Positions 4,651-53,723 of a stretch of DNA of 64,000 nt are shown here, one piece after another. The DNA is taken from NCBI GenBank assembly GCA_951406725.2, contig OX597821.1, positions 65,348,001 to 65,412,000 on the forward strand, written 5' to 3'. The position numbers and the translations under genes were made by a program. How positions within the stretch are numbered: position 1 is the stretch's first letter; each line of letters begins with the position of its first letter. The notes under the pieces were generated by a model, which made no database searches, was not told where the DNA came from, and saw only the letters and a list, made by a program, of their open reading frames with translations. This stretch comes from Octopus vulgaris. Taxonomy: Eukaryota.

Positions 4651-5019
4651 AGCAACAACGTTATATTTCAAATATGTAGCATTGACCTAATAAAAGAATT
4701 GACATTATTCTTCCCTCACAGTCTCCTCCACACACACTTATGCATATCTAAACATATATCGATGTGTATATATATATATATATATATATATATATATATA
4801 TAGCAATAATAATTCTCTAAAAGAGATATAGACAGTAACTGCTCGATAACATAAGGGACTAAAGCCATCTGAATATGGCTAGGGACAGGGGCAGGGGTGG
4901 TGGGGGTGTTACTGTTGCATTTAGCCCCAGGCGAACATCGACGTCACCAGAAAGGCTCGACACCGTCACGGTGCCCTAAACCTGCAAAGGGAGGTAATTC
5001 CCCGATGAAGCGGAAACCA

Positions 5020-5065
5020 CACACGGACCATGGTTTCAAGGTGTATTGCCTATCATCGGCGTGTG
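5020..5065 (-). ncRNA. Type I hammerhead ribozyme (inverted copy of the 359-bp unit)
   Basis: Reverse complement of the motif at 5695-5740. Confidence 0.8.
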
Positions 5066-5335
5066 GTAGGCCTCCGCTTCCTCGACGAATTCTCACTATG
5101 CAGGATTTCTTATATAGATTTTCAAGCAAAATACATTTGCTGATTTCGGCCCTGTCCCTAGCCATATTCAGATGGCTTTAGTCCCTTATGTTATCGAGCA
5201 GTTACTGTCTATATCTCTTTTAGAGAATTATTATTGCTTTCGAACAGATTTTCGAAATCAGCAAATGTATTTTGCTTGAAAATCTATATAAGAAATCCTG
5301 CATAGTGAGAATTCGTCGAGGAAGCGGAGGCCTAC

Positions 5336-5381
5336 CACACGCCGATGATAGGCAATACACCTTGAAACCATGGTCCGTATG
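5336..5381 (+). ncRNA. Type I hammerhead ribozyme, unit 1
   Basis: CACACG-CCGAUGA-UAGG(caauaca)CCUU-GAAA-CCAUGG-UC-CGUAUG, with one stem I mismatch in this copy. Confidence 0.8.
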
Positions 5382-5694
5382 TGGTTTCCGCTTCATCGGG
5401 GAATTACCTCCCTTTGCAGGTTTAGGGCACCGTGACGGTGTCGAGCCTTTCTGGTGACGTCGATGTTCGCCTGGGGCTAAATGCAACAGTAACACCCCCA
5501 CCACCCTGCCCTGTCCCTAGCCATATTCAGATGGCTTTAGTCCCTTATGTTATCGAGCAGTTACTGTCTATATCTCTTTTAGAGAATTATTATTGCTTTC
5601 GAACAGATTTTCGAAATCAGCAAATGTATTTTGCTTGAAAATCTATATAAGAAATCCTGCATAGTGAGAATTCGTCGAGGAAGCGGAGGCCTAC

Positions 5695-5740
5695 CACACG
5701 CCGATGATAGGCAATACACCTTGAAACCATGGTCCGTGTG
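5695..5740 (+). ncRNA. Type I hammerhead ribozyme, unit 2
   Basis: Stem I CACACG/CGUGUG, extended by GAAGCGGA/UCCGCUUC; core CCGAUGA...GAAA; palindromic stem III CCAUGG; GUC triplet. Confidence 0.85.
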
Positions 5741-50094: not shown

Positions 50095-50612
50095 GGCGCA
50101 GGCGTGGTGGTGGTAAGAAGCTTGCTTTCCAACCACATGGTTCTGGGTTCAGTCCCACGGCGTGACACTTTGAGCAAGTGCCTTCTACTAGAGCCTTGGG
50201 CCGACCAAAACCTTATGAGTGGATTTTACAGTTCGAGCCTACGCTCGTCAACAGAAAGGTATAAGAGAAAATAAATAGCGAGAGAATAAAAAAAAAGTTG
50301 TGGATTTTGCGATCAAGCATGGCGACTGGTTAGGAAAAAAGGAGTTGACAGGAGATGTAGAAAGAAGGGGAGATAAGAAAGAAGCCGGTCGTATACATAT
50401 ATGTATATATTTGTGTGTGTTTGTGTGTCTGTATTTGTTCCCCTGACATCGCTGGACAACCGATGCTGGTGTCTTTACGTCCCCGTAACCTAGGGGTTTG
50501 GCAAAGAGACCGATAGAATAAGTACTAGGATTACAAAGAATAAGTTTTGAGGCCGATTTGTTCGACTAAAGGCGGTGCTGCAGCATGGCCGCAGTCAGTT
50601 GACTGAAACAAA
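50095..50612 (+). mobile_element. Family A SINE with a ~150-bp internal insertion
   Basis: Head at 50095-50226; body resumes at ~50378. Confidence 0.8.
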
Positions 50613-51212
50613 ACAAAAATATATCCAATACATTTTGGACGTATCAATAAATATGAATTCAGATCGTCATTTGAAATAACATCAAACTTGTTGAGATCAA
50701 TCCAATTGCGCAAATGTTAGAACCGTTTGAAAATGGTCAATTTCCTAGAAAGCGTGTGCTCATACATATATCTAGGTACCCCCACAAGTCTCTTCTTAGC
50801 TTGATCGTTGTCCACTTGGCTTAATATTATGGTTTAGGCCTTTATCTCTAATGTGATACCAAAAAAAAAAAAAGATAATAATAGAACTTCTGCATCTATT
50901 TGAAACGATGCGATGACTAGTTGCCGGAGTACCGGACAATGATGACGAGAAAGGGACAGAGAAGGACTTGTAACGATTGTGCGTAACCAAGAAAAAAAGA
51001 CGAAATGAAATCATGTAGATGTTAATAACGGAAGGGACGGAGTGACAGTGGCCGTGGTAGTAATGGTAGTGGTGGTAGTGTTGTTGGTGGTGGTGGTAGC
51101 AGTGTTGTTGGTTGTGGTTGTGGTGTGCAATGATGCTTGCAATGAAAGCACGACCAAGGAGGAAGAAAAGAGGATACACTGAAAATAATATTGGCAAAAG
51201 AACGAATAGCAC

Positions 51213-51560
51213 AATAATAATAATAATAATAATAATAATAATAATAATAATAATAATAATAATAATAATAATAATAATAATAATAATAATGATAATGAAT
51301 AAATGAATAGATAGATAAATAGATGAGTTTATTGCCCACAGAAACAGTATATATATATATATATATATGTATATATATATATATATATATATATATAATA
51401 TATATATATATATATATATATATATATATATATATATATATATATATATATATATATATATATATATATATATATATATATATATATATATATATATATA
51501 TATATATATATATATATATATATATATATATATATATATATATATATGTATATGTATATA
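51213..51560. repeat. (AAT)n and long (TA)n microsatellites
   Basis: Directly visible. Confidence 0.95.
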
Positions 51561-52983
51561 CGCATATATATGTAATATATATTTGCATGTATGTATATTT
51601 TGTCTATGTGCGTGTGTAGATGTTATTTCTATTGTCTCGTTCGAAAAGTTGTAAAGATATTAAAAGCCAAGTCCAACAATATCATTAACAACGATAACAA
51701 CAGCAAGAAGAAGAAGAAAAAAAAATATATGAATAAGCATAAAATGTAATAATATTAATTCTGCTTGTTCCCGTTGTTCGTTGTTATCTTTCTCATTATT
51801 ACATATATCAGGTTATACTATAAGCAAAAGTAGTTTTTACTGTTGTTGTTGTTCTTCTTCTTCTTCTTGTTGATTTTGTTGTAGAAATTGATGTCAGTTT
51901 CTGCTCCGGTGACTGTCCACTTATTGTTACCCATGTACGTACGTCTGATGTACAGCTGTTCTTCCAATCGACACCGGTGATCTTTATTTTTTAAACCTTA
52001 TTGCTTTCTTTCTTTCTTTATTTATTTATTTCTTTCTCTCTTTCTTTTTTTTCTTCCCTTCTTTCTCTCTTTCTTTCTTTCTTCCTTTCTTCCTTTCCTC
52101 CTTTCTTTCTTCCTTATTTCTTTCTGTCTTTCTTTTCTTCTTTGTTTGTTTGTTTCTTTCTTTATTTATTTCATTTAGAAAGAATGGGGAAGAAACAGTG
52201 CTAGGATTATTATTATTATCATGATGATGATGATGATCATCATCAACATCATCAACATCCTCCACCTCCTCTTCATCATCATCATCACCACCACCACCAC
52301 CAACAACAACAACACCACCACCACCAACACCACTATCATCATCATCATTATCATTATTATTATTATTATTTTTGTTATTATTTTTATTATTATTATTATT
52401 ATTATTATTATTATTATTATTATCATCATCATCATCATCATCATCATCATCATCATCATCATCATCATTATTATTAGCTCGCCGGGCAAAATGCTGAGCA
52501 GCATTTCATCTGGCACCACGTTCTGAGTTCAAATGTCACCGGGATCGACTTTACCTTTTTCATCCTTTCGGGGTCGATGAATGAATTAGCAGTTACGCAC
52601 TGGGGTCGATGTAATGGACTGGTCCCTTCCCCCACAAAATTCCAAGCCTTGTTCCTATAGTAGAAAGGATTATCATTATTGTTATCATCATCATCATCAT
52701 CATGGTTATTACTTTTTTTTTTTTTACTTGTTTCAGTCATTTGACTGCAGCCATGCTAGAGCATCACCTTTAGTCGAGCAAATCGACTCCAGGACTTATT
52801 CTTTGTAAGCCTAGTACTTATTCTATCGGTCTCTTTTGCCGAACCGCTAGTGTTACGGGGACGTAAACACACCAGTATCAATTGTCACGTGATGTTGGGG
52901 GGGGGACAAACACAGACACACAAACACACCCACACACACACACAAACACACACACACACACACACATATATATATATATATAC

Positions 52984-53723
52984 ATAAAATCACAATAAGG
53001 GTGAAACAATTGAATATTAATTAATAACATCAATTTAAAACACCAAGTGGCCTAGCGTAAAAAAATCTGTGATACAATAAAAATTATTAATACAAGTAAT
53101 AAGAGAGAGACCACATATGGTCACTCTAACGCTAGAAATAGATCCGCAAAGGGAATCCACCACTAAAGAATTGTTCTCAAAGCATTAATTCAACACGCCA
53201 AGAATGTAAGCGGGCAGGACAAATGAAAAATAACGAAAAAATAGATTAACTCTATACAATTGTTTCATCGTTAATAGATTGTGTAATTTTACTTACACAA
53301 TCATTTTCGAATCCTCAGTAGAGTATATCAAAATTATAATTTACAGAACCGAACGCCATAATCCATACGAAGCCGAGCAAAGGCGAACGGCACAGCCGAT
53401 TATATTTGCAGTTATGTTCAAATATCCTCATTCCTGGTGCGTTGAAAATACGGATGTAAATACTACCCCAGTAATTTACTGCCGGTTCGAGAACATATTA
53501 ATTTATAATTAAAATCACAATAAGGGTGAAAAAATTGAATATTAATTAATAACATCAATTTAAAACACCAAGTGGCCTAGCGTAAAATTATTAATACAAG
53601 TAATAAGAGAGAGACCACGTTTTGAATTAATGCTTTGAGAACAATTCTTTAGTGGTGGATTCCCTTTGCGGATCTATTTCAAGCGTTAGAATGACCACAT
53701 GTGGGCTCTCTCTTATTACTTGT
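52984..53723 (-). mobile_element. Partial-tandem (~525-bp period) plus inverted HHR element
   Basis: AAAATCACAATAAGGGTGAAA occurs at 52986 and 53511. 53622-53723 is the reverse complement of ~53090-53192. Confidence 0.85.
53249..53324 (-). ncRNA. Type I hammerhead ribozyme
   Basis: Minus strand: ACUCUA-CUGAGGA-UUCG...(GAUUGUGUAA/UUACACAAUC hairpin)...CGAU-GAAA-CAAUUG-UA-UAGAGU. Confidence 0.85.

Follow-up and report, generated by a model that had tools for sequence, protein, structure and literature searches.

Metazoan retrozymes without long terminal repeats (LTRs) are non-coding tandem units of a few hundred nucleotides (nt), each with one type I hammerhead ribozyme (HHR); they are highly self-paired, co-occur with Penelope-like elements (PLEs), and their cleavage and circles have been shown. 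Two papers, cited here from their main texts (PMC7229834; bioRxiv 10.64898/2026.07.22.740005), both propose PLEs as retrozyme drivers and count about 5,000 motifs in the genome of a mussel, more than 6,000 in a coral and 120,000 in the axolotl; according to the second, cleavage was absent in 8 of 9 Xenopus dimers. The pseudo-LTRs (pLTRs) of PLEs carry minimal HHRs with a palindromic helix III and core covariation at 3-8, mostly solitary or in opposite-strand pairs (PMC4209133), and PLEs have an inverted arm and a one-sided tail of 30-40 bp (PMC8557442). For the Anolis element Poseidon PAc, the PLE protein cleaves and extends both strands, and reverse transcription starts at two internal sites; the sequence between these sites is the tail, and HHR cleavage is not needed (PMC11167929). 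Here, we analysed a window of 64,000 nt from Octopus vulgaris (contig OX597821.1, positions 65,348,001 to 65,412,000; positions below are those of the window) that contains eight families of HHR repeats, A to H, and two degenerate elements, I and J. These are dispersed repeats whose insertions terminate in (TA)n, at two set positions within the unit. It is probable that PLE reverse transcriptase (RT)-endonucleases wrote them into the genome, likely in trans for A, B, D, G and H and likely in cis for E.

The HHR descriptor used was for type I and allowed U4C and G3-C8 cores, a strict motif having a stem I of at least 4 bp; 200 block-wise dinucleotide shuffles of the window served as null model. 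Thirteen strict cores were found (shuffle mean 0.13, maximum 2), and 12 of them have a palindromic stem III, for which 0.025 were expected from the shuffles. The strict cores belong to families A, B, E, F, G and H (Table 1). The core of family D falls below the strict cut-off with a stem I of just 3 bp, that of family C (GUGAACA, G3-C8) escaped the descriptor and was recognised by visual reading, and the cores of elements I and J are broken. U4C, a known natural variant with reduced activity in vitro (PMC3088659), occurs in A, B, E and F, and stem II is long in B, D, G and H. An earlier sequence-only reading of this stretch had placed type I folds at all these sites, mostly with a short palindromic stem III, and both claims hold; the motifs also exceed the shuffle level. 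Stem covariation, the absence of which it had listed as a refutation, is another matter: in alignments read by eye, no compensatory covariation was seen between copies of one family, and the copies decay from a master. The fold is supported only by change between families, eight of which combine the one core with stems that differ. Among the 150 of 260 Rfam matches listed, the hammerhead family was absent and the rows were TA-repeat microRNA artefacts only. The motifs are genuine at the sequence level, with self-cleavage as a prediction.

The insertions have a characteristic anatomy. With seven loci fetched twice left out of the counts, the 3´ end of an arm was located within 12 nt of (TA)n in 65 of 71 arms of A, 40 of 40 of B, 67 of 70 of G, 39 of 43 of H and 24 of 27 of F, and in 26 of 43 of E, 22 of 38 of C and 16 of 42 of D, at a background of 5-6%. 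The (TA)n adjacency proposed earlier is present above background in all families, if weaker in D, C and E. In the 40 A and 40 G loci, most insertions consist of two head-to-head arms with their 3´ ends in (TA)n; an inverted, 5´-truncated arm beside the main arm was found in A, B, C, D, E, G and H. At the inner junctions of A, an overlap of 0-10 nt is the most common case; gaps are more frequent in those of G.

The arms end at either a short or a long site, 178 and 222 nt after the cleavage site in A and 131 and 237 nt in G, and the two arms of an insertion combine one of each. Such short and long pairs made up 27 of 29 head-to-head pairs in A, 11 of 13 in B, 13 of 13 in C, 15 of 17 in E, 27 of 30 in G and 19 of 20 in H, together 112 of 122, with tails of 44-120 nt. 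Both arms at one site were found in none of the 122 pairs (A 0 of 29, G 0 of 30); the 10 pairs of D were left out of this count, their ends being too blurred. The window's six head-to-head elements all have arms with differing ends. This strict pairing suggests an obligate asymmetry of arm start sites, which would be a new feature. Poseidon PAc shares with these elements the two start sites bounding a tail, the extension of both DNA strands and an AT-rich target, whereas here the signature belongs to non-coding RNAs, with tails of up to 120 nt and with arms that never end at the same start site (PMC11167929).

Families A, B, D, G and H are built of tandem units of 359, 583, 454, 490 and 525 nt, respectively (D from one tandem locus), and each unit carries a type I HHR, in D with a weak stem I. 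The A and G arms are pure tandem units in which the unit junction is crossed up to 15 and up to 7 times, respectively, with no open reading frame (ORF) in 40 loci of either family; an ORF linked to A, B, D, G or H was not found among the loci fetched. The units are more stably folded than shuffles (circular fold z -2.2 to -7.5), and 99% identical arrays are present at dozens of dispersed loci. By their non-coding tandem units, the five families are likely of the non-LTR retrozyme type, with one type I HHR per unit of a few hundred nt, and cleavage and circles would be predicted for them; like metazoan retrozymes, the families here are highly self-paired and co-occur with PLEs. Public runs contain family A in 20 cases; contigs from four runs guessed as RNA cover A and G, and 390-nt A contigs occur in two runs guessed as RNA, the contigs showing no strand, ends or circles.

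The elements had been described as mutually dissimilar, which does not apply to all: G and D are related (z 26-28), as are H and B (z 6-8) and G and H (z 5). For A, C, E, F and two PLE 3´ regions, no relation to B, D, G and H was detectable. The latter four have a common module downstream of the HHR, consisting of TTTCTA and a hairpin ahead of the short end, followed by a GGTR...YACC hairpin with varied inner stems and CCT(A/T)TAT shortly before the long end, and their short and long end points lie at roughly homologous places.

The arms also contain information about their template. The predicted cleavage site was crossed by 60 of 68 A arms and 61 of 70 G arms, and 5´ ends were not enriched there (A 2 versus 1.5 expected, G 0 versus 1.1; locus L232 and two small diverged matches in L204 were left out of these counts). 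Since the arms cross this site without stopping, the template was not a cleaved linear monomer. For the comparison of variants in A and G, also without L232, variants present in at least two units were used; singleton counts are inflated by misaligned ends. At positions that both arms cover, 8 of 10 variants in A and 37 of 43 in G occur in both arms, and there are locus-private fixed variants (for example 13 of 13 units in L235, 5 of 5 in L230, 6 of 6 in L304). In most cases the two arms have one haplotype in common, single-locus variants included, which points to one RNA per insertion and would agree with a circle or with a multimer of uniform units. This template could have been an HHR-cut, religated circle or an uncleaved multimeric transcript, two possibilities to which we give equal weight. 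The innermost units of both arms of L222 show four substitutions and an insertion, three of the substitutions being of A>G or T>C/G/A types.

Coding PLEs were found for one of the families. Family E reaches more than 1 kb upstream beyond its terminus, and in 6 of 40 long E copies (compared by eye, the query locus included) a PLE C-terminus is located 0.6-1.2 kb upstream on the same strand. An intact tandem ORF of 726 amino acids (aa) is preceded by an E-like terminus with 83% identity to window positions 28033-28168; it represents a sister family, 64% identical to the E-linked fragment, and the closest E-linked ORFs are decayed. The 726-aa ORF has the RWK, DKT, CxxC and CxH motifs described for Hydra-clade PLEs, which also share the (TA)n target and an HHR in the terminus, whereas its linker reads CX7C in this copy instead of CxCX5C; the clade was assigned by motifs, not by a tree (PMC8557442). 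By this linkage and these motifs, family E is the truncated 3´ end of a coding Hydra-type PLE, and as such it is likely to have moved in cis. E is the only family with an RT and GIY-YIG ORF bounded by its own terminus, via the decayed linked ORFs and the intact sister family.

An intact RT and GIY-YIG ORF of 781 aa with the linker CX4CxxC was present in 16 fetched copies of another element. Fifteen of them extend to (TA)n at the family end, 4 with an additional tail of about 40 nt, and the remaining copy is truncated by a different insertion; some intact 781-aa elements have inverted arms. These loci (L273-L288, e.g. G000:C6:133342500-133351500) represent a young, intact two-ORF PLE family (479 aa and 781 aa), the terminus of which carries an HHR-like core of the U3-A8 type that nearly lacks a stem I. 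In a second PLE family (L289, L292), the minimal HHR is a clean U4C type and the tail is 32 nt long.

The sequence-only reading had proposed a large radiation tied to a TA-targeting PLE machinery, and both the PLE-like insertion anatomy and the intact TA-targeted PLE ORFs with the same anatomy agree with this. Its idea that retrozyme-like RNAs are mobilised in trans is in keeping with A, B, D, G and H but not with E, the terminus of a coding PLE. Full-length PLE ORFs with the same termini exist for E, via the sister family; for A, B, C, D, F, G and H no matching terminus was found in about 50 GIY-YIG loci and their flanks, an incomplete sample of the PLEs. That none of the elements codes for protein is right for the window, in which no PLE coding sequence was found, although E is non-coding only in its truncated copy.

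Families C and F and elements I and J could be truncated coding PLEs or short non-autonomous elements. Together with E they resemble the minimal HHRs of pLTRs in their palindromic helix III, their mostly solitary or opposite-strand paired occurrence and the covariation at 3-8; U3-A8 is reported there, whereas G3-C8 (family C) and U4C are found here, though U3-A8 also occurs (PMC4209133). C, E and F are not tandem (0 of 25 each for C and E; the two tandem matches in 25 F loci were spurious), and a parent PLE for C, F, I or J was not found among the PLE loci fetched. Family F (L153-L177) is a monomer of about 210 nt with a fairly fixed 5´ end and a single 3´ end, similar to a short interspersed nuclear element (SINE).

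In the process that we consider probable, a PLE protein would cut both strands of (TA)n and bind one RNA, and cDNA synthesis would begin on each strand at an internal site of its own, the two sites lying 44-120 nt from each other. Several units would be copied, and the two cDNAs would then be joined 5´-to-5´ at short microhomologies, the hairpin module common to B, D, G and H being the likely loading signal for the protein. A more specific version, to which we give somewhat less than an even chance, is that a dimeric PLE loads on one circular ribozyme RNA via the hairpin module, that each protomer primes one (TA)n strand at its own site and that both circle round, about 200,000 hammerheads in dozens of families being the record of this process.

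Several observations weigh against PLE writing as outlined here. Mobilisation in trans has no named driver, since no fetched PLE terminus matches A, B, D, G, H, C or F. The loci examined are the best-scoring matches of each search and are biased to young copies. The ends of D are blurred, with 16 of 42 at TA, and family F has a single end and no head-to-head copy in 25 loci. At 90-120 nt, the tails of B, D, G and H are longer than the 30-40 bp reported for PLEs, and in vitro the start site was the same on both strands (PMC11167929), unlike the strict pairing here. A single unchanging circle would not yield the mosaic arrays seen in L204 (15 of 22 units interspersed), L299 (four partial variants) and L222, where four variants are located in the innermost unit of both arms. 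Such arrays would be better explained by a mixed multimer, by template switching or by conversion at a later time.

It is unlikely, though the strongest of the alternatives, that all families are merely 5´-truncated pLTRs of coding PLEs, moved in cis, without independent non-coding replicons. This holds for E, and C and F too have minimal HHRs without tandem copies; minimal HHRs have been described as mostly single motifs, probably from truncated PLEs and often in opposite-strand pairs (PMC4209133). However, the A and G arms are purely tandem, with repeated crossing of the unit junction and no ORF in any of the 40 loci each, and PLE coding matches near A, D, G and H are separated from them by (TA)n in every listed case and are thus separate insertions. 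The same applies to B in all cases but L071; in this single case (L071:2253-3111), a B arm adjoins the divergent 3´ region of a Hydra-like PLE, with no (TA)n separating the two.

A scenario discussed in bioRxiv 10.64898/2026.07.22.740005, in which a monomer inserts and the array then grows locally by unequal crossing-over or slippage, like a satellite, has a very low probability here. Partial variants limited to adjacent units of one arm (L209, L212, L229, L297) do show some local duplication or conversion, but private variants are fixed across both inverted arms, 99% identical arrays occur at dozens of dispersed loci, unit numbers are non-integer and 5´ ends are spread. Least credible of all is a long interspersed nuclear element (LINE) of the microsatellite-targeting Dong/R4 type as driver, since LINEs prime at the RNA 3´ end, which would not yield two start sites, a one-sided tail or read-through. 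An octopus repeat annotation has Dong-R4 as one of its most active groups (PMC13282606 Table 1), but two internal start sites, a one-sided tail and unit read-through are PLE features (PMC11167929, PMC8557442).

The abundance of HHRs is a property of the whole genome (2.80 Gb, 227 contigs). In a sample of forty 10-kb stretches at fixed round positions (400 kb), 29 strict motifs in 24 insertions were found, compared to 0.67 in 12 shuffles; they come from about 17 families, counted by eye, and (TA)n is located within 330 nt downstream of 23 of the 29 (background 23%). Extrapolation gives about 203,000 motifs in the genome (136,000-292,000), or about 72 per Mb. The unusual local density assumed earlier was not found: 7 strict insertions in the window compare with 3.8 expected from the sample (p=0.09), which is within expectation. 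Families A to H are all dispersed; a first look gave 900 to 3,109 candidates for each, figures that are not copy numbers, and F has 8 copies in the sample. The sample (L353-L392) also contains at least 10 further HHR families, many with a stem II of 45-80 nt.

Table 1. HHR elements of the window; "strict" marks cores that pass the strict descriptor
Element	Position	Strand	Remarks
Family A inverted arm, 0.97 unit	4802..5148	-	ends at long start site (unit position 222); strict core 5059
Family A tandem arm, 4.1 x 359-nt units	5149..6630	+	strict U4C cores 5342/5701/6060/6419; short site (178) in (TA)n
Family B partial unit of 583-nt tandem family	6764..7182	+	strict U4C core 6907, 61-nt stem II
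Element I, degenerate HHR	8738..9010	-	core about 8880
Family C inverted arm with 59-nt tail	19836..20018	-	
Family C arm, G3-C8 minimal HHR	20021..20168	+	core 20043; short end in (TA)n
Element J, fold-back, degenerate HHR	20400..20873	.	core 20614 (+); intact relatives in 400-kb sample
Family D inverted arm, long end	21419..21521	-	
Family D partial unit, 454-nt tandem family, older, G-related	21519..21880	+	core 21682
Family E inverted arm, short end	27953..28026	-	
Family E, 3´ terminus (pLTR) of Hydra-type coding PLE	28026..28178	+	strict U4C minimal HHR core 28041
Family F, about 210-nt monomeric element	28999..29201	-	minimal U4C HHR, strict core 29130
Family F second copy	35045..35223	-	strict core 35181
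Family G arm, 1.8 x 490-nt units	36980..37873	-	strict cores 37766, 37276
Family G arm	37876..38290	+	strict core 38069; short end (131) in (TA)n
Family H arm, 525-nt tandem family	52970..53618	-	strict core 53318; long end
Family H inverted arm, short end	53618..53725	+	

The window is rich in microsatellites and contains abundant SINEs, which we take to be those of octopus genomes. A broken LINE-type RT fragment at 3679-4274, presumably Dong/R4-like, lies by (TTC)n/(TTA)n and gave a weak RVT_1 match (E 0.016). We assume that a frameshifted peptide at 28400-28860 resembles Helitron Rep/helicase; Pfam gave no support. An abundant TA-abutting repeat at 20905-21400, with similar sequences at 23500 and 61100-61260, contains no intact HHR according to the descriptor.

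The system is of a known kind; new are its scale, the common start-site module, the long tails and the obligate asymmetry. Compared with metazoan retrozymes, there are many more families and motifs per Mb here, although the descriptors differ, as well as variant cores and a stem II of up to 80 nt, and the insertion anatomy has been mapped. Neither hammerhead elements of octopus or other cephalopods nor a strict short and long pairing were found in the main-text literature, supplements and Repbase/Dfam being outside this scope. The main text of PMC7229834 does not contain the words octopus, cephalopod, inverted or microsatellite, and a 2026 octopus repeat annotation reports recently active Penelope families, its text being without the words ribozyme and hammerhead (PMC13282606).

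Copying of animal retrozymes into DNA, by PLEs and rolling circle, has been proposed but not shown, and this genome offers material for it. Because very young non-coding families and intact candidate enzymes are at hand, with starts mapped to a few bases and a candidate RNA signal, a test in vitro is well specified. The strict short and long pairing constrains the PLE mechanism itself, and with so many motifs, hammerheads would rank as a major class of repeats in this genome that has gone unannotated. If a dimeric PLE indeed loads on one circular RNA, the octopus genome would be the densest natural test bed for retrozyme mobilisation.

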